Notes: a model not told the origin generated them from the letters alone. A stretch of DNA of 64,000 nt from a virus (IMGVR_UViG_3300045988_105168:50766-114765); one strand, 5' to 3'. Shown: positions 30,701-64,000, numbered from the stretch's first letter. Translations and numbers: made by a program.

Positions 30701-31509
30701 GTTGTAATGCCGACAACAGTTCTATACTAAATCATAAAAGCAGGCATTACACTGTTGTGACGAACCCGCGGTTTGCAAGGTTTGGTTTTCCCTATGGCAG
30801 AACTATGGCTGTCCTATTGCTTTTTTATATATTCTATACTCTCTTATTCTTTAAGGACTACCCTTTTTAGCCCTTATAAATAAAGGCCTTTTAGAGCATA
30901 TGGTGCAAAAAAATTTTAAAATTGAACCAAATGCGTCTTAGAGGTCTAAAAATGGTTTGCTATGGCAGCCTATAATGTATTAATAAGTAGGTGTGTATAA
31001 TAAGTTGCCATAGAGTCTAGTCTATAAGCTAAGACTGCCTATATACGAGCAAAGGCTACTAAGAGTCCTCGCGTCCCAAGTATTATTGTAAAGACTACCC
31101 CTACTAAATGTAAAAATGTAAAGAAAGCCATTATTTGTAAAGGAATTTTGGCTGTCCGTGTGTTCAGATGAGACGTATGTCTCTTTTTTGTTTAGTGGCT
31201 GTATAAGGTAAGACAAGTGCTGCCTGTGTGTGAGGGAAGATTTCCTGGCAGTGTAAAGAGTAAGGAAGACTTTTTGGCTGGAAAAGTGTGATTTTCTGGG
31301 GGTTTTGGGCTGGAAAAATGTGAGAGCTGTGTGTTGACGTGGGAGATGGGTGTAGTTGCGTGACTACGTGGATGAGTGGAAATTCGTAAGGCGGCCTTCC
31401 GAAAAGAGCAGCTACATTATAAAGTGGGGGTTTTTTGCCTTTTTAATTGTAAAATACCCCCATAATGTAGTATAAATGTATATTTTAACCACATAAACCA
31501 CCAAACCAC
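30701..31509. other. ORF-free, GC-richer, repeat-word-rich region (candidate genome terminus / pac-cos / origin / ncRNA locus)
   Basis: No SD-preceded ORF on either strand. About 40% or more GC by eye against ~30% in the flanks. Recurring words: CTATGGCAG (twice, plus an inverted copy), GGCTGTCC (twice), GGCTGGAAAA[AG]TGTGA (twice, at 31276 and 31308), [AG]GACTACCC (twice), TGTAAAG (at least 4 times). Orphan hairpin plus T6 at 31170-31189. Confidence 0.5.
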
Positions 31510-31543
31510 CAAAAAAAGCCGACTACTTAACAAGTAGCCGACT
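31510..31543 (-). terminator. intrinsic terminator of the AT-rich island genes
   Basis: In the minus-strand RNA, AGUCGGCUACUU-GUU-AAGUAGUCGGCU forms a 12-bp stem with 2 G-U pairs, followed by U7. The G-U pairs make it strand-specific. Confidence 0.65.
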
Positions 31544-31559
31544 TCACAAGTATTTTTTT

Positions 31560-32141
31560 TTATGCTGTTATCTCTTCAAGTGTTATTTTATCACTAATTA
31601 AAATATAATCTTGATAATCTTTTAACCTCTTTTCATAATGTTTAAAACTTTTATATATAATATTATCTATTGTTTTTATACTTGCTTTTATCTCTTCTTT
31701 TATCTCTTCTTTTTTATCATATTGTTTAATTAGTTTATAATCAATTATTTTATTATCTTGTTTTATAACCTTATATAAATTATAATATTTTATATAATGT
31801 AAATAGATGCTATTATTATTTTTTAAATCAAATATAGCGAGTTGCTTGTTATCTCTTCCAACTTCTAACGCTTCCAAATAATCTATAATATGTATAGATA
31901 TATCAATATACATTATATCATTATCAACCCATAAACCAATATAAACATTATCAATATTTTTTATTTTTTCTTTTTTCTTTTCTATCTCTTTTTTAATCTC
32001 TTCTATATTGTTTATATCTGTTTTTATCTCTTCCCCGTATAAACTAACCATAAAACCATTATTATATGATATATTATTATAGTTTTTGTCTAGTGTAGCC
32101 CCCTTGTTTTCTATTATTTCAATTATTTTTTTATTATCCAT
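31560..32141 (-). CDS. hypothetical Lys/Asn/Ile-rich protein (193 aa) in a very AT-rich island
   Basis: About 20% GC by eye. AAAGGAACGG SD-like upstream. No family recognised. Confidence 0.6.
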   Translation of the reverse strand: MDNKKIIEIIENKGATLDKNYNNISYNNGFMVSLYGEEIKTDINNIEEIKKEIEKKKEKIKNIDNVYIGLWVDNDIMYIDISIHIIDYLEALEVGRDNKQLAIFDLKNNNSIYLHYIKYYNLYKVIKQDNKIIDYKLIKQYDKKEEIKEEIKASIKTIDNIIYKSFKHYEKRLKDYQDYILISDKITLEEITA

Positions 32142-32236
32142 TTTTTACCGTTCCTTTACTTTTCTATTATATTTTTTTAACCTTAACCCCTTATATTCTT
32201 ATTATATGTAATATATCTTTTTTTATACTCTTTTTT

Positions 32237-32479
32237 TTACTCTTCCCCCTCTTCCTCTTCTCTTTTTACTATTGCTTTTATATTCTTTTTAATTAATGAT
32301 ATAAAAGCCGTAAACATTATATAATTAATAATATCACTATTAAAATATAAGTTAACTCCATCACTAGCCATTAAGTTAAGCCCATATAATAGAGCCATAA
32401 AGCCACCTAATAAAGCCATAAACCCCACATATAAAACCCACTTTTTAAATCTCCATTTTTTAATTTTTTTTACTTTCAT
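32237..32479 (-). CDS. small two-TM membrane protein in the AT-rich island
   Basis: TM segments WVLYVGFMALLGGFMALLYGL and IINYIMFTAFISLI. AAAGAGG SD. Confidence 0.6.
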   Translation of the reverse strand: MKVKKIKKWRFKKWVLYVGFMALLGGFMALLYGLNLMASDGVNLYFNSDIINYIMFTAFISLIKKNIKAIVKREEEEGEE

Positions 32480-32496
32480 TTTTTTAACCTCTTTTC

Positions 32497-32531
32497 TAGT
32501 TAAGGACTTTTTTATTATCTCCCCTTAACTA
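32497..32531 (-). other. 9-bp-stem hairpin in the 5' UTR of the membrane-protein gene
   Basis: TAGTTAAGG (32497-32505) pairs with CCTTAACTA (32523-32531) around a 17-nt loop. It sits between the promoter and the SD. Confidence 0.4.
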
Positions 32532-32536
32532 ATATA

Positions 32537-32565
32537 ATTATATCAAATAAAAAAAAATAATACAA
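32537..32565 (-). promoter_or_regulatory. sigmaA-type promoter (TTGTAT-17-TGaTATAAT) for the AT-rich island
   Basis: -10 is the reverse complement of 32537-32542. -35 is the reverse complement of 32560-32565. Confidence 0.55.
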
Positions 32566-32637
32566 GCATTTTTTTACATTTTAACATTATTTTTTTACAT
32601 TTTACATTTTTTTGTAAAGTGCTTTTTTTTTGCCTTG

Positions 32638-32670
32638 TTTTTCTACTATATAAAAAAGCCGTGCTATAAT
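32638..32670 (+). promoter_or_regulatory. phage promoter module P0 (TTCTAC box + 18 nt + TGcTATAAT)
   Basis: TTCTAC at 32641-32646; -10 at 32665-32670. Same architecture as 10 further copies. Reads into an ORF-free repeat region. Confidence 0.65.
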
Positions 32671-32727
32671 GTTTATAGATAAAAAAAGCAAGTATAAAAA
32701 AGCCGTTTTTATCATATAATATTAATA

Positions 32728-32763
32728 GAGCCGACACGAGCCACGAGCCGAACGAGCCGACAC
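32728..32763. repeat. four tandem GAGCC(N2-5)C units
   Basis: GAGCCGACAC, GAGCCAC, GAGCCGAAC, GAGCCGACAC. Confidence 0.8.
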
Positions 32764-32832
32764 GAACGAATGTTCACACGAACAAGTGTTTGTCAACCAA
32801 AAAAGGTTGACAGACTAACACGAACGAATGTT
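32760..32832. repeat. 15-bp direct repeat ACACGAACGAATGTT (2 copies) flanking an 8-bp-arm palindrome
   Basis: Repeat copies at 32760-32774 and 32818-32832. Palindrome TGTCAACC-AAAAAA-GGTTGACA at 32791-32812. Confidence 0.8.
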
Positions 32833-32844
32833 TGACACGAATAC

Positions 32845-32960
32845 ATAACACGGCATAGAGTTTTTGTGGGGAATTTTGCACGAGAGCATAACACGGCATA
32901 AAAAAGTTGTGGGGGAAATCGGCAGAATATAACACGAATTTAAAAAATCGTGGGGAAATT
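32845..32960. repeat. three ~42-bp direct repeats of the bipartite motif ATAACACG-N13-GTGGGG(G)AA
   Basis: ATAACACG at 32845, 32888 and 32929. GTGGGG at 32866, 32909 and 32950. The internal offset is 21 nt in all three. Lies immediately upstream of P1. Confidence 0.8.
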
Positions 32961-32966
32961 TCAAAA

Positions 32967-32999
32967 TTTTTCTACTATATGCAATTTATATGGTATAAT
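32967..32999 (+). promoter_or_regulatory. phage promoter module P1 (TTCTAC + 18 + TGgTATAAT)
   Basis: TTCTAC at 32970-32975; -10 at 32994-32999. Confidence 0.7.
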
Positions 33000-33058
33000 T
33001 AAAGCAGAAAAGGACATAATATAAGTAGAGCAACAAAAAAATAAAAAAAAGTTAAAAA

Positions 33059-33091
33059 AATTTCTACTATATCAAAAAGTTGTGGTATACT
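33059..33091 (+). promoter_or_regulatory. phage promoter module P2 (TTCTAC + 18 + TGgTATACT)
   Basis: TTCTAC at 33062-33067; -10 at 33086-33091. Confidence 0.65.
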
Positions 33092-33124
33092 AGAAGTGTA
33101 AAAAGCAAGGAAGAGGTGTTAAAA

Positions 33125-33340
33125 TTGTATAAAAACGAGATTAAAAAAGAATTACAAGCCATTTATAATAGCAATAAAAACATTGATAATGAATTAGTGA
33201 ATATTAAGGTTGCTATACATAATTTGGAGAAATTAGGTTGTAATACAAAAGACCTTGAAAAAATGCTTGATAACATTGGAATTGAATTTTATAAATTTAA
33301 AGTTGAGAATAAAGAAGTATTAAAGAATTGGAGAGTGTAA
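33125..33340 (+). CDS. hypothetical protein (first early-arm gene)
   Basis: Start moved to TTG 33125 (AAGGAAGAGG SD), because the track start at 33080 lies inside the P2 -10 region. Confidence 0.55.
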   Translation: MYKNEIKKELQAIYNSNKNIDNELVNIKVAIHNLEKLGCNTKDLEKMLDNIGIEFYKFKVENKEVLKNWRV

Positions 33341-33343
33341 ACT

Positions 33344-33628
33344 ATGAATAATAAAGAATATAGAACAAACTATGCTAAAAAATATAAATTAGAATTTGAG
33401 GACTATAACGGGTGGTGTAATAGGGACACTTGGTTAGTTATGCTATGGTTGAATAACGACCAAAACAACTACGAGGGTATAACAAGAATTATTAATAACA
33501 CGCACGAGTTAAAAGATTTGAGTGATATGCAATTATACGGCATTTTAAAAGACTTTCACTATGGGGACAAAATCAATTTTAATAGGGTTGATTTGGACGA
33601 GGTTAGATTTGGTTTAACTGAAAATTAA
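33344..33628 (+). CDS. hypothetical protein
   Basis: GGAGAG SD; co-oriented. Confidence 0.7.
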   Translation: MNNKEYRTNYAKKYKLEFEDYNGWCNRDTWLVMLWLNNDQNNYEGITRIINNTHELKDLSDMQLYGILKDFHYGDKINFNRVDLDEVRFGLTEN

Positions 33629-33646
33629 GCCAAAATCTAGCAGAAC

Positions 33647-33725
33647 GGAAAGAAATCACACACTATAAGGTTTTTGAAATACCTATAACGGAAAGCAATG
33701 GAAAGAAATCACGGAATATAAGGTT
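33647..33725. repeat. two 26-bp direct repeats GGAAAGAAATCAC..A.TATAAGGTT in a GGA-rich ORF-free gap
   Basis: Copies at 33647-33672 and 33700-33725 (period 53). The gap 33629-33781 has at least 7 GGA motifs and no promoter box. Confidence 0.75.
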
Positions 33726-33781
33726 ATGGAAAGCAGAGCCATAACACGAGCCGTGAAAAAGAACGGAAACGAGGGAAAATT

Positions 33782-33988
33782 ATGTTTGAAGATAAAAAAA
33801 TCACTATTGAAAAAGTAAAAGATTTAATTTATGCACTACAAAATGAATTTGATAATGAATTGGACTATGATTATACGAGTGAATATAAGGCAGAATTTAC
33901 GGAAACGGACTTTAATATTATGCTTGAATTTTTAGAAAGATTTGTTGGAAAATTTGAATTATCTATTGTAGAAGAATTAGAAGATTAA
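33782..33988 (+). CDS. hypothetical acidic protein
   Basis: GAGGGA SD. Confidence 0.7.
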   Translation: MFEDKKITIEKVKDLIYALQNEFDNELDYDYTSEYKAEFTETDFNIMLEFLERFVGKFELSIVEELED

Positions 33989-34001
33989 GAGGTGGAAAAC
34001 T

Positions 34002-34283
34002 ATGTTTGATTTAACTATAACACAAGAGGTTAACAAGTTATTAAAAGACATTAGAAAAGAATTAAAAAACAAGGGTTATAACAAAAGCACGAGCCGTACT
34101 AATAGATATATAGGCACAATGCACTTGAATTATACGACTGAATATTTTATTAAAGGCAACTTATTATTTGAAATTGAAAGAGATTTGAATAATAGCACTA
34201 TAACAACAAGACTATTCTATAACGGCACAAACGGAAAAGAAACAAAAGAAATAAGACTAGCAGACATTTTAAGTCTAGCATAA
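34002..34283 (+). CDS. hypothetical protein
   Basis: GAGGTGG SD. Confidence 0.7.
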   Translation: MFDLTITQEVNKLLKDIRKELKNKGYNKSTSRTNRYIGTMHLNYTTEYFIKGNLLFEIERDLNNSTITTRLFYNGTNGKETKEIRLADILSLA

Positions 34284-34300
34284 CAAAAGAGGTGGAAATT

Positions 34301-34729
34301 ATGATAGAAAGCAGATTAATGGAAATTTACGAGGGAATTTTTAAAGATAGCAAAATTGCAATAACAAAAAATAGTTTTAGTGGAGATAATGTTTTATGGG
34401 TACAACTATATCTAGCACAAAACGAGCAAGAAGAAATCAATGGTTATTTTGACAACGATATGTTCGGCATTATATTTAAAATAACAAAAACGGCAGAAGA
34501 TAACTATATAATGGAAAATAAACAAAATAGATACCTTGTAAAGCCGACAAATAAATATTTAGTATATGAAAGCAAAAAAGTTGCTTTTAGAAAAACACAA
34601 GGCAACGAGGACAAAATTATAACAACATTTAAAAAGTATGTGGAAAATCTACACAAGGCACTTGTAGAAGATTTAAAACAAGGCAACATACACGAAAATC
34701 ATATAACACTTTTAGAAAAAAAGATTTAG
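34301..34729 (+). CDS. hypothetical protein
   Basis: Start moved to ATG 34301; the track's GTG at 34292 is part of the GAGGTGG SD. Confidence 0.7.
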   Translation: MIESRLMEIYEGIFKDSKIAITKNSFSGDNVLWVQLYLAQNEQEEINGYFDNDMFGIIFKITKTAEDNYIMENKQNRYLVKPTNKYLVYESKKVAFRKTQGNEDKIITTFKKYVENLHKALVEDLKQGNIHENHITLLEKKI

Positions 34730-54031: not shown

Positions 54032-54910
54032 ATGAATATAGAGAAACTTTTACAAGAATTTACCACATACAAGGTTAATGTTGAGGGTAGAAATATTGAT
54101 AGTATCACACTATATATAAAACATATCAAAGAATTTTGTGCCGATATGAATATAGACGAATATAACACATTTATTAATGCAAACGCACAAATAATCAAAG
54201 ATTGGCTCACTATCTTAGTTGACAAAGGTAATGGGGCGACGACTAGAAATAACAAATTAAGTGCAATAAAACAAATCTATTTATTTTTAGAAGACGAAAA
54301 AATGATAGATGTAGACCGAAGAATTGACAAAATTAAATATGCAAAGGCAGTACAAAAAGAAACAAAGTGTGCAGATAGAACTCAAGTTGAGCAATTATTA
54401 CAAGCCACTAATAATCAACGAACTCGTGCTATGATTTCGGTTATACATTCTACGGGTGTTCGTTTTAAAGAATTAATACAAATCACTTGTACTGATATTG
54501 AAAATGGCTTTGCAGTAGTTTTAGGGAAAGGTAATAAGGAAAGAACCATTTGGTTTGACCCCGCTTGTACAAAAATATGTAAAGATTATATTAATGGCAA
54601 AAGGGCAAAAATCATAGAAAAAACTAATATAAAGACAGACTTATTATTTTTAAGTGATGGTGGAAAGATTATTAGACAAAATAGTTTTGATAGAACATTA
54701 AAAACTTTAGGTGTTAAAATAGGTTTATATTGGGGTAATGAAATGTCCCCACACAAAATACGCCACGGGTTTGTTACCGATAGTCTTGACGACGGAATAC
54801 CTATTCAAACCGTTAGGGACGCCGTAGGACACGCAAATATTGCAACCACAAATAGATATGCCCATACCAATAAAAATGCGATTAAGGACGCAATGTTAAG
54901 AGAGAAATAA
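54032..54910 (+). CDS. int: tyrosine recombinase / integrase (XerC/D-like)
   Basis: N-terminal SAM-like core-binding domain. Catalytic set: STGVRFKE (R), GKGNKER (K), HKIRHGF (HxxR), GHANIATTNRYAH (H...Y). Confidence 0.85.
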   Translation: MNIEKLLQEFTTYKVNVEGRNIDSITLYIKHIKEFCADMNIDEYNTFINANAQIIKDWLTILVDKGNGATTRNNKLSAIKQIYLFLEDEKMIDVDRRIDKIKYAKAVQKETKCADRTQVEQLLQATNNQRTRAMISVIHSTGVRFKELIQITCTDIENGFAVVLGKGNKERTIWFDPACTKICKDYINGKRAKIIEKTNIKTDLLFLSDGGKIIRQNSFDRTLKTLGVKIGLYWGNEMSPHKIRHGFVTDSLDDGIPIQTVRDAVGHANIATTNRYAHTNKNAIKDAMLREK

Positions 54911-54921
54911 GGAGGTATGTT

Positions 54922-55422
54922 ATGGCAACATTAGAAGATTTAGCAGAAATAGTTGTAGAAGACGAGGAAATTAATAATGAGAGTACGGAAAGTGAGATAG
55001 ATTACACACCCGTAACTCTCCAAATTTTAGGTATAGCGGAGCAGTTAAAAGATTTGGACGATTATTTTAATGAACTTCCTAACCTACAATCACAAGTTGA
55101 CGAAGAATTAAGTGATTTATTACATTATATTGAAAGTAATGATTTAACACCAAAACAATCAGTCAAAATGATTAAATTATTACAACAAAAAAGATTGGTT
55201 AGAAGAGGTCTTTGTAATGACTATGAAATAAAAAGGGTATATAATACTCATAGAAACAAATTAGCAATAGACACACAAAGACAATTCTTTTTAAGCGAAG
55301 TATGTAAGAAAGCAAAAGAATTAAATTCACAATATAGGTATCGTCAATTTGGTGTCAACGAAAATGACACAATGCAAAGAAAAATAGTAGCCGAAGACGA
55401 AATTAAGGCACTATTAAAGTAA
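54922..55422 (+). CDS. hypothetical protein
   Basis: AAGGAGGT SD. Confidence 0.7.
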   Translation: MATLEDLAEIVVEDEEINNESTESEIDYTPVTLQILGIAEQLKDLDDYFNELPNLQSQVDEELSDLLHYIESNDLTPKQSVKMIKLLQQKRLVRRGLCNDYEIKRVYNTHRNKLAIDTQRQFFLSEVCKKAKELNSQYRYRQFGVNENDTMQRKIVAEDEIKALLK

Positions 55423-55436
55423 AGAGAGGAATTATT

Positions 55437-55769
55437 ATGGAATTTTTAAGAAATTTATTTAGTGGCGACGACAACGATATTGAAGAGGAAAATAAGCAGT
55501 TAAGAAGAAAACGCAAACATACTCAAGAAGAGTTGGACGAAACTAAAGAAAAACTTGAAGATATTACAAATAAATATATTGAAATATTGGAAGAAAAAGC
55601 AAAAGGTTTTGACCAATATTTACATTATCAAGAGTTGTATGGGGAAACCTATACACAAATGAAAGAATATAAAAAGGAATTAGCCGAAGTTAAAATGCAA
55701 TTAAAATCGGCACAAGAAGAGTTGGAAAAGAAATCTAAAAGAAAGGGGAAGAAAAATGAGGACGATTAG
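55437..55769 (+). CDS. hypothetical Lys/Glu-rich coiled-coil protein
   Basis: AGAGAGGA SD. Confidence 0.7.
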   Translation: MEFLRNLFSGDDNDIEEENKQLRRKRKHTQEELDETKEKLEDITNKYIEILEEKAKGFDQYLHYQELYGETYTQMKEYKKELAEVKMQLKSAQEELEKKSKRKGKKNEDD

Positions 55770-56265
55770 AAAAGGCACATTTGAAACCAATTCAAGTTCT
55801 ACTCATAGTATAACGGTCGCTCGTAAAAACGTGGCAATTCCTATAACAGAACAAAATATTTTTGTGGAGATTGGAGAGTTTGGTTGGGAATTTGAAACCT
55901 ATGACACACCACAAGAAGTATTAAGTTATTTATATACGGCAATTTGTTGTAATTATAAACAAGATTATAAAAAATATACCGATAAAATTGATAAGATATT
56001 AGCAGAAAACACTAAAACTAAGGTTGAATGGCAAGAGCCAAAATTTGACGAGTATGGCTATTTAAATGATGGTTATATAGACCACGGCTATGAATTAGCA
56101 GAATGGTTAGAAACACTATTTGAAAATGAAGAATTGTTATTACGCACAATATTCTTTGGTGTTGTAGAAACTGGCAACGACAATGCTGGCTGGGAAGATG
56201 GAATGTATTGTGGTCAAGGTTGGTTTAATAATGCGGTTGAAGATGTTTTTTATAAGGGGAATTAA
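55756..56265 (+). CDS. FETNSSSTH-motif family protein, paralogue 1 (169 aa)
   Basis: MRTIRKGTFETNSSSTHSITV; also GYIDHGYE and VETGNDN. AAGGGGAAG SD. Confidence 0.8.
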   Translation: MRTIRKGTFETNSSSTHSITVARKNVAIPITEQNIFVEIGEFGWEFETYDTPQEVLSYLYTAICCNYKQDYKKYTDKIDKILAENTKTKVEWQEPKFDEYGYLNDGYIDHGYELAEWLETLFENEELLLRTIFFGVVETGNDNAGWEDGMYCGQGWFNNAVEDVFYKGN

Positions 56266-56267
56266 CT

Positions 56268-56654
56268 ATGGAAGATAGAACAAATTTTTACGCAGACGAG
56301 TTAAATATGGACAGAGTAAATGAAACATTAGAATATGTAGCAAGTCATTTAACTCTAAAAGAAATTCTTAAAATGGTGCGTGAGATAAGTTATGATATGG
56401 TTTGTTATTATAACGAAGACGCCAAAGGTATTATTTATAATGGCGAATATAATGACAATCATAGATGGCAAGCGTGTCAATTACAAAGATTATTAAGTTC
56501 GGCTTGTGATTTATTTGAACAATCAGTTGTGGGTCATAGAGAATTTGATAATGACTATTTGAGCAAATGGCTCGACGGTGGGGTAATGGAAAGAAAAATA
56601 GCCGATTTAGAAGAAAAAATCAGGCTATTAACGGAAAGAAATGAGGAGGAATAG
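56268..56654 (+). CDS. hypothetical protein
   Basis: AAGGGGA SD. Confidence 0.7.
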   Translation: MEDRTNFYADELNMDRVNETLEYVASHLTLKEILKMVREISYDMVCYYNEDAKGIIYNGEYNDNHRWQACQLQRLLSSACDLFEQSVVGHREFDNDYLSKWLDGGVMERKIADLEEKIRLLTERNEEE

Positions 56655-56657
56655 TAA

Positions 56658-56891
56658 ATGGAAAGAAATGAGTGGATTGTAAATTATTTAAAAGGAAAAG
56701 AAGTAAAGAAAGTTGATTTGGAAGATTTCTTTACTATTGAAAACGGAGAAAAGCCGATTAATATTAAACAAGCTGGAGATTACACATACACTTATACAAC
56801 CGACTTATACGCTTATACAGTAACAATTAACCCACTTAAACCATATATCACAACTTATACAGTTGCCGATGTAGTTGTTACAGTATTATAA
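56658..56891 (+). CDS. hypothetical protein
   Basis: GAGGAGGA SD. Confidence 0.7.
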   Translation: MERNEWIVNYLKGKEVKKVDLEDFFTIENGEKPINIKQAGDYTYTYTTDLYAYTVTINPLKPYITTYTVADVVVTVL

Positions 56892-56932
56892 TGTACAGTT
56901 TATTTAAAAATATACATAAATAAGGAGAAAAT

Positions 56933-57721
56933 ATGAAAACAATTAGATATGGAAGTTTTGAAACTAATTCTAGTTCTACTCACGCAATAGTAATTCCGCA
57001 CAAAGTAAGTGAAGATAGTTACGATTTGTATGATAGTTTAGACCACGATTATGCTTTTGGTAGAGAAGAATGTCGCTTATGTGAGCATTGGGACGAAAAA
57101 CTAGCCTACGCATATATGTTATTAACTACTAATTGTGATTGGTCGCAGAACGATAATGGGTGGAAACCAAATAATACCACTACAAAAGAAGACGTTGATA
57201 TGTTAAAAAAACGTATAACAGCAATGTGGGAAGTTGTGGAGTCTAAATTACAAAGAAAATATGACCCCACACCACAAGATGTATTTAATTATATAGATAG
57301 AGATGGCACTGATGGAAACTTAACAGGCGATGATAGTTTTATGGTGTTAAAAGAACGTTGGGGAAACTATATTGACCACGCAAATAATTTAGACCACACC
57401 GATATTATTGAACGACTAAAAACCGACGACGAATTTGTTAAGAGATTTATTTTTAGCAGAGAAAGTTATATTACTGTTGGTGGCGATGAATATCGTGGTT
57501 ATAATATTAAAACAATAGGTTTTGAATATGATTATAGCGGTCATTATTGCGTTAACAGTAAGGGCGAAAGACCTCCTAAAGAATGGTTTGATGAAGACGG
57601 AAGAATAAAAGATAAGTATTGGGATAAATATTACGAAGAATATAATATTGACGCAGGTGGCTTTTGGGATAAGTTGAGAGAATACGAAAAAAATAATGAT
57701 GTATATTTGAAAGGAAATTAG
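56933..57721 (+). CDS. FETNSSSTH-motif family protein, paralogue 2 (262 aa)
   Basis: MKTIRYGSFETNSSSTHAIVI; also NYIDHANN and ITVGGDEY. AAGGAGA SD. Confidence 0.8.
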   Translation: MKTIRYGSFETNSSSTHAIVIPHKVSEDSYDLYDSLDHDYAFGREECRLCEHWDEKLAYAYMLLTTNCDWSQNDNGWKPNNTTTKEDVDMLKKRITAMWEVVESKLQRKYDPTPQDVFNYIDRDGTDGNLTGDDSFMVLKERWGNYIDHANNLDHTDIIERLKTDDEFVKRFIFSRESYITVGGDEYRGYNIKTIGFEYDYSGHYCVNSKGERPPKEWFDEDGRIKDKYWDKYYEEYNIDAGGFWDKLREYEKNNDVYLKGN

Positions 57722-57722
57722 T

Positions 57723-58199
57723 ATGAAGAAGATTAGAAATAAAACATTTGAAACTAATAGTAGTAGCACACATAGTTTGTCATATTGTGGCAATGTAAAT
57801 TTAGACACATATACACCAGTTGGCGATAAAATTGTCATAGATTTTATTAACACAGACGACGGTGGTACATTCACTACACTAAAAAGAAAAGTATCATATT
57901 TAGTATCGCATATTGTTAACAATTATAAATATAATTGTTTAGATTATGAAGACTTAGTAGAACAAGTTAGTAATTCTTATGATTTTAAAAGAATTTCAAA
58001 CTATGTAAAAAATAAGTATGGGAAAGAAGTAGTGTTCCCAAAAGAATATAAAGGAGATATTGAGGAAATAGTGTATATTAATCATCAATTATTGGAAAGA
58101 GATTTAGATAGTGTTTTAGAAGATTTAATAACAGAAGAAAGAGATTACTTGGCAGAAGTATTAGACCCAACACAAGTTATTGAATTAGGACACGATTAG
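57723..58199 (+). CDS. FETNSSSTH-motif family protein, paralogue 3 (158 aa)
   Basis: MKKIRNKTFETNSSSTHSLSY; also VYINHQLL and IELGHD. Confidence 0.8.
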   Translation: MKKIRNKTFETNSSSTHSLSYCGNVNLDTYTPVGDKIVIDFINTDDGGTFTTLKRKVSYLVSHIVNNYKYNCLDYEDLVEQVSNSYDFKRISNYVKNKYGKEVVFPKEYKGDIEEIVYINHQLLERDLDSVLEDLITEERDYLAEVLDPTQVIELGHD

Positions 58200-58208
58200 G
58201 AGGTAATT

Positions 58209-58568
58209 ATGAGAACGGTAAGATATAATACGTTTGAAACGAATTCTAGTAGTACACACGCATTGGTAATTTTATCTAAAGAAGATTACAAAGCGTGGCA
58301 AAATAATGAAAAAACATTAAATCTTTATTCTGGAGAAGTGCAAGAGTTAACAGATTATGATAAAAAAATCATAAGAAATACAGACGGTTCGATTGATTAC
58401 GAAGGAAAGCATTTTGAGAGCGAATATGATTTTATGGAAGGCGATTATTACGACGTAATTGACGATAGCAATGCGTCGGCAGAATATATTGAACATTATG
58501 CCGAAGTAGAACAAAAAGAACTTGGCGATAATGTTATTATGAGTATTTATCGTGGGGATAGATGGTAA
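58209..58568 (+). CDS. FETNSSSTH-motif family protein, paralogue 4 (119 aa)
   Basis: MRTVRYNTFETNSSSTHALVI; also EYIEHYAE and IYRGDRW. AGGAGGT SD. Confidence 0.8.
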   Translation: MRTVRYNTFETNSSSTHALVILSKEDYKAWQNNEKTLNLYSGEVQELTDYDKKIIRNTDGSIDYEGKHFESEYDFMEGDYYDVIDDSNASAEYIEHYAEVEQKELGDNVIMSIYRGDRW

Positions 58569-58569
58569 T

Positions 58570-58839
58570 ATGAATTTAAAATGGCGTTGGTTTAGATTTA
58601 AACAAAGGCTTATGAAAAACTTTGAAACCCAAGATTTAAGGGTGGGTGTCAAAATAGAATGGTTTAAAGGCGTGTCAACGATAACAGAAGTATCAACAGC
58701 GTTAATGTTTGATGTAGAAGACGCAGAATGTAAACCTATTGAAGTGACGTATTATATTTTAGACACCAATTATTATTTTAAAGACGAGCCAGATGGCATT
58801 ATGGAAGAAGATATATTAAGAGTTATAAAGGAGAGATAA
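58570..58839 (+). CDS. hypothetical protein (start uncertain)
   Basis: Start moved to ATG 58570; weak SD. Confidence 0.55.
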   Translation: MNLKWRWFRFKQRLMKNFETQDLRVGVKIEWFKGVSTITEVSTALMFDVEDAECKPIEVTYYILDTNYYFKDEPDGIMEEDILRVIKER

Positions 58840-58840
58840 T

Positions 58841-59227
58841 ATGAGAACAGTAAGAAGAGGAACTTTTGAAACAAATAGTTCAAGTACGCACTCAATAACA
58901 ATGTGTATGGAGAGTGACTATGAAAAATGGAAAAATGGTGAAATGTATTGGCACAGATGGAATGATGAATTAGTATCTAAAGAAGAAGTAGAAAAAGAAA
59001 TGGCTAAATTACGTGAGGAATTTATTGCCGATAATCCAGACTTTGATGAAAATAATGAGGAATGGAAAGAAGAATTAGACCAATATATTAATGAAGATAA
59101 AATGTATTACACTTATGAAGAGTTTAACGATTACGATTATATAGAGTATGAAACATTTGTAGATACATTTGAAACACCACAAGGAGAAAAAGTAGTAAGT
59201 TTTGGTTATTACGGAAGTGATTATTAA
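58841..59227 (+). CDS. FETNSSSTH-motif family protein, paralogue 5 (128 aa)
   Basis: MRTVRRGTFETNSSSTHSITM; also DYIEYETF and YYGSDY. AAGGAGAG SD. Confidence 0.8.
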   Translation: MRTVRRGTFETNSSSTHSITMCMESDYEKWKNGEMYWHRWNDELVSKEEVEKEMAKLREEFIADNPDFDENNEEWKEELDQYINEDKMYYTYEEFNDYDYIEYETFVDTFETPQGEKVVSFGYYGSDY

Positions 59228-59245
59228 AAACTAGGAGGAAATGAA

Positions 59246-60148
59246 ATGAAACTATTAGCAAGGTATAAAAATGGTAATTATACTGTAACAATTTTTGATG
59301 ATGGAACTAAAATTAGAGAAAACGATTTAGACTTTCTTGATGCCGAATTCCCTGAGTCAATGGATTGTAAAATAACAAATAGATGTCCAATGGGTTGCCC
59401 TATGTGTCACGAGAAATCAACACCAGACGGAGACCACGGAGATATTATGAACGCAGAGTTTGTAAATAAATTGCGTAAAGGTACGGAAATGGCTATTGGG
59501 GGAGGAGCTGTGACTTCTCACCCTGACCTAGTACCATTTTTAAGAAAATTAAAAGAAATAGGTGTGTTGCCTAGTATTACAGTACACCAAAAAGAATTTA
59601 TTGGAAATTATGATTTAATCGATATGTTAGTGAAAGAAAAATTAATTTATGGTTTAGGCGTATCATTTAGTTCGTTTGACGACGAATTTTGGGATAAGGT
59701 AACAAAAGCCAATCCTAATCTAGTAGTTCATTTAATCGCTGGTATACACGGCGGAGATGTATTTAAATATTTTGCAGATAAAAAAGTCAAGATATTGGTA
59801 TTAGGATATAAAGATTTTGGTAGAGGTCATAATTTACTAGAAAAGGCTGGCGGAATTATAAATGCTCAATTAACTTGGTTAAAAAATAATTTACAAGACT
59901 TATTAAGTAAGTATGCTGTCATCTCTTTTGACAATCTAGCTATTGAGCAATTAGATGTTAAAAGTGTATTAACAGACGAGCAATGGAAAGAGTTCTATCA
60001 AGGTAATGACGGTACACATACTATGTATGTTGATTTAGTAAAGAAACAATTTGCTAAAACATCGACTTCAACAGAACGCTACCCATTACTAAGTAATATT
60101 GATGATATGTTTAAAATTATAAAAGGAGATGATAATAATGGCGAATAA
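59246..60148 (+). CDS. radical SAM enzyme (small, 300 aa; subfamily not recognised)
   Basis: C47-x3-C51-x2-C54 (NRCPMGCPMCH; Cys codons span 59384-59407). GGE-like MAIGGGAVTSHP. AGGAGGA SD. Confidence 0.7.
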   Translation: MKLLARYKNGNYTVTIFDDGTKIRENDLDFLDAEFPESMDCKITNRCPMGCPMCHEKSTPDGDHGDIMNAEFVNKLRKGTEMAIGGGAVTSHPDLVPFLRKLKEIGVLPSITVHQKEFIGNYDLIDMLVKEKLIYGLGVSFSSFDDEFWDKVTKANPNLVVHLIAGIHGGDVFKYFADKKVKILVLGYKDFGRGHNLLEKAGGIINAQLTWLKNNLQDLLSKYAVISFDNLAIEQLDVKSVLTDEQWKEFYQGNDGTHTMYVDLVKKQFAKTSTSTERYPLLSNIDDMFKIIKGDDNNGE

Positions 60149-60908
60149 GAAAAAGACTGTGGAAGTCAACACTGATGAGTTAAATGCAACTCAATACTTT
60201 AATTACCTAAAAAAGAAGAGACAAACTGTCACAGATAAAGATTTGGAAGATTTATATAATGGTTATTTGTCATTAGTAGAAAAATATAGTGTGACAGGAC
60301 AAAAGCGTGTTATTGAAAAATTAAGATTTCTTGCAGACAATATAGAGAAAGAAAGACAAATTGTTGCTTTAGGTATTAACTCGTTTGTGTATAGAGATGA
60401 TATTGAAGATTATATTGATAACATTGCTAAAAATGTGGTTAAAATTATCGAATTAGAAAACTATCCTAGAGATATACCAGACCATATTGTAGAAATTATA
60501 GCAAAAACTAAAGATATATTCGATAAAATGTATGTTGTATTTACAGATTATACTGGTAAAGTGGAAAAAGAAGTTGCTAAAGAACGCAAAGAAAAAGACC
60601 CAATATTATTTGGTACATTTCAAAAACCTCGTGAAGAAGAACGTAGAAATAGTGGTATAGTGTTAAATGACCGTTTCTATTTTTTAGGAGATTGGGAAGA
60701 CGAATATTGTGATTTAACTATGGATAAATTTTTACAAGAGGCAGGAAAAGAAAAATTACAAAAAATTATTATCCCAATTAATACAGAAAAAATGATAGAA
60801 GAATTGGAAAGACTAGACGATAATTTAAGACGTTTGAATGATGTAGAGTTTGATAAATTAAAAGGAAATAAAAAGTTCTCACTGAAGAATTTATTTAAAA
60901 GAAAATGA
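60138..60908 (+). CDS. hypothetical protein (256 aa)
   Basis: Start moved to ATG 60138 (AAGGAGA SD). Confidence 0.65.
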   Translation: MANKKKTVEVNTDELNATQYFNYLKKKRQTVTDKDLEDLYNGYLSLVEKYSVTGQKRVIEKLRFLADNIEKERQIVALGINSFVYRDDIEDYIDNIAKNVVKIIELENYPRDIPDHIVEIIAKTKDIFDKMYVVFTDYTGKVEKEVAKERKEKDPILFGTFQKPREEERRNSGIVLNDRFYFLGDWEDEYCDLTMDKFLQEAGKEKLQKIIIPINTEKMIEELERLDDNLRRLNDVEFDKLKGNKKFSLKNLFKRK

Positions 60909-61264
60909 AAGAAAATGTAGATTTAACGGAAAATAGAGATTTTCGTATTAAGGCTTTAGAAGCCCAAAATGGTTCTCATTTTATAGGTTTTATGACCAAT
61001 ATGACACCAATGACAGAAGTTTTTCATCAAGATAGATTTGGAGTTCCTCAAGACGATTATTATATTGGTGTCGATAACGGTGTTATTATACAAGGTAATG
61101 CTCTTGAAAGATGTTCAAAAAATTTATGTAAAGAATTTAATATGGGAAACTATTGTGATTGTTGTGGAAAAGAAATTAAGCCTTATTATAACGATTGTTT
61201 ATGCCCAGATTGTGATAACAGAATGTCAAATATTACTGAAACACCTTTTAGAAATTTTATATGA
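60905..61264 (+). CDS. hypothetical Cys-rich protein
   Basis: ATGA overlap with the upstream gene. CDCCGKE...CLCPDCDN. Confidence 0.6.
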   Translation: MKENVDLTENRDFRIKALEAQNGSHFIGFMTNMTPMTEVFHQDRFGVPQDDYYIGVDNGVIIQGNALERCSKNLCKEFNMGNYCDCCGKEIKPYYNDCLCPDCDNRMSNITETPFRNFI

Positions 61265-61325: not shown

Positions 61326-62297
61326 ATGGCAGCATTAAATATAATGATTGGGTTCCCTGGTAGTGGAAAATCAAGTTACGCTAAAAAATACTTATTAACA
61401 AATAATTCAGTTTATTTGTCAAGCGACCAAATACGAATAGATATGTATGGTTTTGAAGACCAAACTCATAACGGCGAAGTTTTTGAAAGAATGAAACGAG
61501 AAACTATTTTAGCTTTACAAAATGGTTTTGATGTTATATATGACGCAACAAATCTTGTTAGAAAACGTCGTGAGGCATTAATAAAAGATATTAAAAATAG
61601 AGTACCAAATATTGAAATTAATGCTTATCTATGTTGTACACCAATAAACATTGTTTTAGAAAGAAATATGACACGCACAGAAAGGCATCTTCCTTGGGAT
61701 AAATTAGAACAAATGATAAAAAGTATTGAGGTACCGATGTATTATGAAGGTTATGATAATATTGCACTAATCGACGGTGGAATGTATAATGACGTTTACG
61801 ATTATAACTTTTTAATCAAAGATTGTGAAGGATATTCACAAGACAATCCACATCATAATGAAACATTAGCAGAACATATCAAAGCCGTTACTAAGTATGC
61901 AATAGAATTAGGAGAAGATTTACATCTAAGTATTGATAAAGAGATTTTACGTCAAGCAGCTCGTTATCACGATTTTGGAAAGTTATATACAAGATTATTT
62001 AATGAGAAAAAGGGGCATTATGTATATTATGGACACGAAAGAATTTCGGCATATATGTTTTTATGCCATATTAGAAAACAACGTATGCTTGATGATTTAA
62101 ACCGAGTTAGATTATGTGATAGTGATTACCAAATAGCCGCCCTAATATTAAATCATATGGAGTGGTATCGCAGAGAAGATATGAGTGTAGTTAAAGAATG
62201 GTTTAAGGACGATGATTTATATAAAATGCTAGAATTATTACACGAAGCCGACCTACAAGGTAGAAATGAATACGCAAGGAGCGTGGAATTATGGTAA
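61326..62297 (+). CDS. P-loop polynucleotide-kinase-like domain fused to an HD-domain phosphohydrolase
   Basis: N-terminus IMIGFPGSGKSSYAKKY (Walker A), LSSDQIR, YDATN..RKRR. C-terminus HHNETLAEH...ARYHDFGK (HD). Confidence 0.65.
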   Translation: MAALNIMIGFPGSGKSSYAKKYLLTNNSVYLSSDQIRIDMYGFEDQTHNGEVFERMKRETILALQNGFDVIYDATNLVRKRREALIKDIKNRVPNIEINAYLCCTPINIVLERNMTRTERHLPWDKLEQMIKSIEVPMYYEGYDNIALIDGGMYNDVYDYNFLIKDCEGYSQDNPHHNETLAEHIKAVTKYAIELGEDLHLSIDKEILRQAARYHDFGKLYTRLFNEKKGHYVYYGHERISAYMFLCHIRKQRMLDDLNRVRLCDSDYQIAALILNHMEWYRREDMSVVKEWFKDDDLYKMLELLHEADLQGRNEYARSVELW

Positions 62298-63944: not shown

Positions 63945-64000
63945 AGGGGCGTAGTTCAATGGTAGAATAACGGTCTCCAAAACCGCTGATGTGGGTTCAA
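63945..64000 (+). tRNA. tRNA-Trp (anticodon CCA), 3' part cut by the window end
   Basis: AGGGGCG acceptor, GTTCAATGGTAGAA D-arm, anticodon loop CTCCAAA, and the start of a GTGGGTTCAA T-arm. Closely resembles Bacillus-type tRNA-Trp. Confidence 0.85.

Follow-up and report, generated by a model that had tools for sequence, protein, structure and literature searches.

An invariant N-terminal cassette on diverse phage proteins is linked to a small radical-SAM enzyme

Results

Our analysis of a 64,000-nucleotide (nt) stretch of AT-rich viral DNA (IMGVR_UViG_3300045988_105168:50766-114765; hereafter the window) concerned a gene array in which five proteins start with a common N-terminal segment, here referred to as the cassette, and are followed by a gene for a radical-SAM (rSAM) enzyme. 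An earlier, sequence-only reading had described this array, and its components were found where that reading had placed them: five open reading frames (ORFs) with a common N-terminus on the plus strand, three small ORFs interleaved with them, and a 300-amino-acid (aa) CX3CX2C rSAM gene that begins 18 nt past the last cassette copy. The six same-strand genes at 55.7-60.2 kb have good Shine-Dalgarno sequences, and all five cassette proteins are acidic, with an isoelectric point (pI) of 4.2-4.8. The features are listed below; the types and domain classes are those obtained from the family comparison that follows.

55756..56265, plus strand: cassette protein 1, 169 aa, A-type, domain class I; cassette codons 1-18 at 55756-55809; other motifs GEFGWE, GYIDH, TGNDN, and C-terminal YKGN
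56933..57721, plus strand: cassette protein 2, 262 aa, B-type, domain class I; cassette at 56933-56986; other motifs FGREECRL..WDEKLAY, YIDH, ITVGGDEYRGYNIK, and C-terminal YLKGN
57723..58199, plus strand: cassette protein 3, 158 aa, C-type, domain class I; cassette at 57723-57776; other motifs VSYLVSHI, YINHQL, and C-terminal LGHD
58209..58568, plus strand: cassette protein 4, 119 aa, E-type, domain class II; cassette at 58209-58262; C-terminal motif IMSIYRGDRW
58841..59227, plus strand: cassette protein 5, 128 aa, D-type, domain class II; cassette at 58841-58894; other motifs TMC..DYxKWxNGE and C-terminal VVSFGYYGSDY
59246..60148, plus strand: rSAM enzyme, 300 aa; CX3CX2C (CPMGCPMC), PF04055, phrog_16999
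56268-56654, 56658-56891, and 58552/58570-58839: three interleaved ORFs, unrelated to the cassette family

The third interleaved ORF can start at a GTG at 58552 (95 aa) or at an ATG at 58570 (89 aa); the latter is the gene call in identical metagenomic contigs and avoids an overlap with cassette protein 4.

All of the copies in the window (5/5) start with M-[RK]-[TK]-[IV]-R-x-x-[TS]-F-E-T-N-S-S-S-T-H-[SA]. A six-frame scan of the 64 kb found FETNSSSTH five times, each time at the N-terminus of an ORF and on one strand, and nowhere else in any frame; this position and count exclude a chance motif. Over the nine motif codons the copies agree at 16-24 of 27 nt, and the serine codons alternate between the TCN and AGY classes. 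Such divergence rules out a recent DNA duplication and bears out the earlier view that conservation acts at the protein level, with synonymous turnover of the codons; the selection is therefore long-standing. Across the family, the consensus reads M-K/R-x-I/V-R-x-x-x-F-E-T-N-S-S-S-x-H. Among 405 distinct proteins, R(-4) and H(+8), both of which stood outside the search pattern that collected these proteins, were 100% conserved, and the F and T of the cassette were conserved at 98% and 99%, respectively. The phenylalanine lies 8 or 9 residues from the start methionine in 371/405 proteins, and in the matches to the family profile the motif is practically always found at the very start of the protein. 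When cassette protein 1 was modeled with AlphaFold2 (AF2), the predicted local distance difference test score (pLDDT) was 47 at residues 1-10 and 73 at residues 11-20; this low model confidence would fit a segment that requires a partner. At the DNA level, the only match of the region 55000-61000 to a GenBank phage comprised 45 bp at 55765-55809 (91% identical to Lak-C1), and this match corresponds to the coding sequence of the cassette.

We then asked what stands behind the cassette. The N-terminal segment through H+3 was cut from approximately 645 distinct family proteins, and the remainders were clustered and compared profile against profile. Single-linkage clustering of the trimmed proteins fused most classes, and community detection and hhalign were used instead. 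This yielded the following classes:

Class I: types A, B, C, and F; cassette proteins 1, 2, and 3 of the window; hhalign probability of 93-98% within the class over ~100 columns
Class II: types D and E and one further type; cassette proteins 5 and 4 of the window; hhalign probability of 69-86% within the class
Class III: two Cys-rich types; no cassette protein of the window; hhalign probability of 98.7% within the class

With the cassette removed, the hhalign probability of homology between the classes was below 1.5%. The equally trimmed B-type and C-type matched the A-type with probabilities of 97.7% and 96.3%, respectively, and the E-type matched the D-type with a probability of 85.8% over the first 29 post-cassette columns; the E-type versus class I gave a probability below 0.5%. 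As judged by sequence comparison, the wider family consists of at least three domain classes without detectable homology, and the cassette is the sole element common to all of its members. Because the trimmed proteins split in this way, the cassette is portable, being fused to unrelated domains rather than forming part of a single fold. The proposal that the array represents one small metal-binding-type fold with diversified surfaces was thus not upheld, as the five trimmed copies of the window belong to two unrelated domain classes. The Y-I-[DEN]-[HY] and G-x-D motifs, which the sequence-only reading had assigned to all copies, were recovered in cassette proteins 1-3 (D109/H110 and G140/D142 in the A-type alignment). 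They were not recovered in proteins 4 and 5, where the resemblance is probably due to chance because these proteins show no homology to the class I domain (<1.5%). The invariant positions of the A-type alignment are R5, E10, N12, S13-15, H17, W44, Y58, D109, D142, and N143.

The family is large and has no characterized relative. A profile of the five copies retrieved 3,429 clusters at 90% identity and 3,542 clusters at 50% identity, and the family of the rSAM comprised ~5,000 clusters at 90% identity. Of the family databases searched, only PHROGs recognized cassette protein 1, which matched phrog_28997 (function unknown) over its full length (E value of 1e-21). Profile searches with all five proteins against Pfam, NCBIfam, and PADLOC gave no meaningful match, a Pfam scan of 64 A-type members revealed no recurring family, and neither the five proteins nor the rSAM matched the defense and anti-defense profiles of PADLOC-DB. 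No PDB sequence matched a single cassette protein, and none matched the 64-member A-type profile with an E value below 0.09. The AF2 model of cassette protein 1, built from a diverse alignment, reached a pLDDT of 85.8 and a predicted TM-score (pTM) of 0.84; Foldseek found no neighbor for it in the PDB (best E value of 0.63, TM <0.25) and a single type of match in BFVD, an uncharacterized homologue. Thus, neither the profile nor the structure comparisons, both of which the sequence-only reading had called for, assigned these proteins to a characterized family. Assignments suggested by short motifs, namely, HAD (DxDxT), SGNH (GDS/GxND), 2H (HxT/S), metallophosphoesterase, and DnaQ (ExoI), were rejected, as no fold or profile supported them; pyruvoyl or N-terminal nucleophile (Ntn) self-processing at N-S or S-S is conceivable but was equally unsupported and would leave the linkage to the rSAM unexplained. 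A literature search on the motif string and on phage rSAM, ribosomally synthesized and posttranslationally modified peptide (RiPP), or anti-defense systems found no description of it, and neither a link between phrog_28997 and phrog_16999 nor the occurrence of the cassette in other domain classes was recorded in PHROGs or in the literature searched.

The rSAM carries its cluster motif as C47-x3-C51-x2-C54 (C47-PMG-C51-PM-C54) at 59384-59407, and the three cysteines were invariant or nearly so in 56 homologues. It scored 30.6 bits against PF04055 (E value of 4.5e-7), a narrow margin over the gathering cutoff of 29.5, matched phrog_16999 ('Fe-S oxidoreductase'; E value of 4e-40), and shares, across its full length, 39% identity with the Ma-LMM01 protein gp128 (a Microcystis phage). 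By profile score, cassette protein 1 and the rSAM are thus members of phrog_28997 and phrog_16999, both of which are functionally uncharacterized. The AF2 model of the rSAM, for which a narrower homologue alignment served as input, had a pLDDT of 93.8 and revealed an N-terminal three-stranded beta sheet (the YxNGN...DGT region), a partial barrel, a long helix, and a small C-terminal beta/alpha unit. Its beta/alpha elements alternate, and Foldseek matched it to several rSAM structures with a probability of 1.00. The best match in the PDB was SuiB bound to its precursor (E value of 5e-7, TMq of 0.59), followed by SkfB, EpeE, and PqqE and then by the small-molecule twitch enzymes AbmM, BlsE, and SpeY; no glycyl-radical activase, spore photoproduct lyase (SPL), QueE, or viperin was among the top 50 matches. 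The cluster motif, the partial TIM barrel, and the PF04055 score place the protein in the radical SAM superfamily.

The enzyme has only four cysteines (41, 47, 51, and 54), with no SPASM/twitch cysteines in its C-terminal part and no conserved cysteine column after C54. Since no cysteine is conserved beyond CX3CX2C, the rSAM, unlike its structural neighbors, has no auxiliary cluster. No Pfam match to a RiPP recognition element (RRE) or PqqD was found on the rSAM or its neighbors. In a 78% identical homologue of the rSAM (P0334), a mini-intein of ~147 aa (Pfam Hom_end_hint and Intein_splicing) is inserted exactly at the third cysteine of CX3CX2C, which corresponds to Cys54 at 59405-59407 of the window. 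Because inteins typically sit at functionally essential residues, this position argues that the cluster site is functionally critical. The thymidine-hypermodification rSAM M6 gp53 was considered as a counterpart and rejected, as it is an SPL-like enzyme of another rSAM family, with the cluster motif at residue 125.

The link between the two families was examined in other genomes. At least one cassette ORF was present in 79/81 IMG/VR loci seeded with the rSAM profile, and an rSAM gene lay at most ~3 kb downstream in 73/79 loci seeded with the A-type, two of the six exceptions being contig ends. A further set of 166 loci, each with at least 3 kb on both sides and dereplicated by rSAM sequence, contained at least one cassette ORF within 8 kb of the rSAM in 161 cases. 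The cassette ORFs of this set lay without exception on the same strand as the rSAM (347/347) and mostly upstream of it (325/347), and the median gap between the nearest upstream cassette ORF and the rSAM was 18 nt; a D-type was this nearest ORF in 114/155 loci. Most loci carry two copies, only nine carry at least five, and the range is 1-6 per genome, so that the set of the window, with three class I and two class II proteins, is unusually large. Clustering of the neighboring ORFs revealed no third partner, with the next commonest neighbor occurring in 35/156 loci (22%).

Among 50,697 GenBank phage records, the rSAM was found in 15 Lak and 9 Ma-LMM01-like records only, the cassette family matches were confined to the same two groups, and the family adjoins the rSAM in every Lak or Ma-LMM01 locus inspected. 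In Ma-LMM01, the A-type member gp130 lies two genes upstream of the rSAM homologue gp128. Lak phages show the reverse order: cassette genes that belong to different domain classes lie downstream of the rSAM, five in Lak-C1 (L247 7523-10900) and four in Lak-B5 (L248 8001-11000). The sequence-only reading had connected the invariant N-terminus with the neighboring rSAM and had named synteny in other phages as a test of this idea; the synteny in all three locus sets supports the connection, and it extends to the Lak megaphages and Ma-LMM01. Collectively, these data revealed a self-contained and essentially phage-borne module of two gene families.

A solo rSAM gene, encoding a 47% identical protein, was found on a bacterial-looking 220-kb contig (L202 5992-6879; Christensenellaceae), next to genes for an ATP-grasp protein, a hydrolase, and a BirA-like protein and with no cassette gene nearby; it may be a domesticated or orphaned copy.

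The pair of rSAM and cassette genes is present in gut Firmicutes-type phages, Lak megaphages, and Ma-LMM01. The exact proteins of the window recur on dozens of human-gut contigs of up to ~115 kb. The structural genes resemble, only distantly, those of large Enterocloster, Thomasclavelia, and C. difficile phages, and because of this resemblance the host is probably a gut Firmicute; binning of metagenome-assembled genomes (MAGs), which is unreliable for phage contigs, points to Bacilli or Clostridia. Reference genomes (n = 185,579) yielded 131 matching stretches, mostly phage-sized contigs in gut MAG bins. The module was also seen on contigs binned with Methanobrevibacter and Methanomassiliicoccaceae MAGs (L172, L210, L219, and L228), one of which (L210) carries the variant cassette FETNSSSEH; these contigs may be archaeal viruses or binning errors.

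As for the surroundings of the array, a 259-aa ORF at 60129-60908 shares 20 nt with the end of the rSAM gene. It matches phrog_10081 ('transposase'; E value of 4e-82), with no support from Pfam, and is not conserved beside the rSAM in other phage groups. It is followed at 60905-61264 by a 119-aa ORF that contains eight cysteines, some of them in paired CxxC motifs, and probably encodes a zinc-ribbon protein, and at 61326-62297 by a 323-aa fusion of a P-loop polynucleotide-kinase-like domain (AAA_33/KTI12) with an HD/HDIG phosphohydrolase domain, which suggests an enzyme of RNA/nucleotide repair or processing. An XerC/XerD-type tyrosine recombinase (NCBIfam E value of ~1e-44) is encoded at 54032-54910, within the block of early genes that lies just upstream of the array. 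At 63945-64000, the end of the window truncates a tRNA gene (Rfam RF00005, 40 bits), of which the 5′ part is present, and ARAGORN found no complete tRNA in the window. At ~31000-34500, where long ORFs are few, the coding strand and the GC/AT skew switch sign, with genes on the minus strand before ~32 kb and on the plus strand after ~34 kb; this may be a divergent promoter or origin region. Outside the window, ~7-8 kb beyond the array of the same phage (L001 17031-18426), a family-2 glycosyltransferase gene is immediately followed by a gene for a second, unrelated rSAM protein of 237 aa.

Discussion

The module resembles several known systems in part. The best structural neighbors of the rSAM are the RiPP maturases of the SuiB/SuiA, SkfB/SkfA, EpeE/EpeX, and PqqE/PqqA pairs. 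As in RiPP systems, several same-strand client genes lie directly upstream of one rSAM gene, an order that mirrors precursor-maturase operons, and a short invariant element is common to otherwise variable clients. However, the clients are folded acidic proteins of ~90-330 aa rather than short peptides with leader and core, the conserved element occupies the extreme N-terminus and looks like the place of reaction and not like a leader, the rSAM has neither SPASM/twitch cysteines nor a recognized RRE domain, and the system is found overwhelmingly on phage contigs. Conceptually closest is the anaerobic sulfatase-maturating enzyme (anSME), an rSAM that converts a Ser or Cys in a short invariant motif of many sulfatases, with the converted residue being required for activity; the cassette offers three invariant serines. 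Nevertheless, the C/S-x-P-x-R motif is missing from the cassette (FETNSSSxH), the two auxiliary clusters of anSME are missing from the rSAM, and neither a Sulfatase match in Pfam nor a Foldseek match indicated a sulfatase/alkaline-phosphatase fold in the clients. The glycyl-radical activases (PflA and NrdG, with the spare part GrcA/YfiD) are likewise small single-cluster rSAMs that act on protein clients, some of them small, and one activase can serve several clients. The cassette, however, contains no invariant glycine or RVxG[FWY], and it is N-terminal rather than C-terminal; the C-terminal glycines of the clients differ by class (KGN, GHD, and GYYGxD) and are not common to all, and the rSAM scored 17.8 with the NrdG profile of NCBIfam versus a cutoff of 131. 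Because membership of the anSME, glycyl-radical, and RiPP systems fails on these defining features, the array would represent a new form of a known arrangement, an rSAM with dedicated protein clients, rather than a member of one of these systems, and the finding is not explained by any known family.

We favor, at about even odds, the reading that the rSAM posttranslationally modifies the cassette of several client proteins. According to this model, the phage would encode a two-component system consisting of a small rSAM without auxiliary clusters and a variable set of cassette-bearing clients. The rSAM would bind the N-terminal cassette segment of a client, the 5′-deoxyadenosyl radical would abstract a hydrogen atom within E-T-N-S-S-S-x-H, and this abstraction would install a posttranslational modification needed for the activity of the client, possibly an aldehyde similar to formylglycine, a dehydro-residue, a crosslink, or an adduct. 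The model builds on what our data establish, namely, the linkage of the two families, the portable and invariant nature of the cassette, and the structural kinship of the rSAM to peptide-modifying rSAMs. A more specific form of it, to which we subscribe only tentatively and with less than even confidence, is a phage-specific maturation in which a minimal single-cluster rSAM installs a new modification in the portable ETNSSSxH cassette, which phages would fuse to unrelated effector domains and thereby arm a diversifiable range of early proteins; candidates for the product are a Ser-, Asn-, or His-derived crosslink, an electrophile, or a protein-derived cofactor. The cassette genes lie among early/DNA-metabolism genes, and phages differ in how many copies they carry and in the domains of these copies. 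This gene setting, the acidity of the proteins, and their variability are compatible with host-directed effectors or counter-defense, but an early-expressed effector role or the counter-defense role raised by the sequence-only reading is only a guess.

The covalent modification of the cassette, the modified residue, the chemistry, and the later action of the clients are things that we infer, and several observations weigh against the modification model. A few loci of the cassette family have no rSAM within 10 kb (L097, L104, L106, and L112), and a few rSAM loci have no cassette family (L077 and L202). The Foldseek likeness among rSAMs is driven by their common barrel and discriminates function only weakly. 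As the rSAM has none of the auxiliary-cluster cysteines on which its nearest structural relatives (SPASM/twitch enzymes and anSME) rely for oxidative chemistry, anSME-like or crosslinking chemistry would need a different electron route, and the absence of an auxiliary cluster argues against straightforward oxidative chemistry of the anSME or SuiB kind. Finally, class I has extra invariant polar residues (D-H, G-N-D-N, and K-G-N) that would fit autonomous enzymes in which the N-terminal motif is part of the active site.

This last point leads to the best of the alternatives, which we nonetheless consider unlikely: the two families may be partners in a pathway, with the cassette proteins acting as autonomous enzymes or binding proteins, their motif serving as a catalytic or ligand loop, and the rSAM acting on a small molecule or nucleic acid, for example, in modifying a nucleotide, DNA, or RNA. 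The invariant polar residues of class I do look like an active site (W44, Y58, D109-H110, G-N-D142-N143, and K167-G-N169), and the module usually lies among DNA/nucleotide-metabolism genes. Phage rSAMs that act on DNA modifications exist, M6 gp53 being a precedent (PMC8989533), although this enzyme is SPL-like and of another rSAM family. Against such a pathway, the 18-residue motif heads at least three classes without detectable homology, including proteins of ~90-130 aa that have none of the class I residues; a catalytic loop is unlikely to be so portable. Moreover, no further gene of such a pathway accompanies the pair consistently, and the cassette proteins show no fold or profile similarity to known enzymes.

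Portability would be accommodated by noncovalent docking, an alternative that we regard as rather improbable. Here, the cassette would recruit the rSAM, and the C-terminal domains would be interchangeable specificity or regulatory subunits for host or phage targets. One rSAM per 1-6 different cassette proteins in a genome and the spread of the cassette across domain classes would suit this arrangement, as would the low AF2 confidence of the cassette, which is that of a partner-dependent segment, and the N-terminal three-stranded sheet of the rSAM could accept a beta strand. On the other hand, docking motifs are rarely 100% invariant at eight or more positions in a row, among them three Ser, an Asn, and a His, a pattern more typical of a reaction site, and we know of only thin precedent for rSAMs with exchangeable specificity subunits.

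Very improbable, finally, is a signal role of the cassette, be it as the virion or ejection targeting peptide proposed by the sequence-only reading or as a capsid-targeting or processing signal, with an incidental link to the rSAM: the strict N-terminal position of the cassette in tandem arrays of small acidic proteins (pI 4.2-4.8) and the resemblance of F-E|T to protease sites that cut after Glu, as in the T4 internal-protein targeting sequence, which is cleaved after Glu, speak for it, but the genes lie among early/DNA-metabolism genes and are tied to the rSAM rather than to head or protease genes, which in the window lie on the opposite strand ~25-55 kb away; the named late genes of Ma-LMM01 are structural (gp086, gp087, and gp091), while the gp128-130 region, whose own expression class is presumably not late, adjoins the middle-class primase gene gp134; and the 97% same-strand adjacency to the rSAM would be left unexplained.

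If the modification model is true, the module would represent a widespread virus-encoded radical posttranslational modification system that acts on full-length proteins. Its chemistry would not be predictable from known rSAM classes because the enzyme has no auxiliary cluster and its target is rich in Ser, Asn, and His, and it could provide new enzymatic chemistry for protein tagging. The carriers are ecologically prominent and include abundant phages of the human gut, animal-gut phages, Lak megaphages, and a bloom-controlling Microcystis cyanophage. Both families are currently annotated only as 'hypothetical' or 'Fe-S oxidoreductase', and through the pairing of enzyme and clients a function could be assigned to thousands of dark-matter phage genes.

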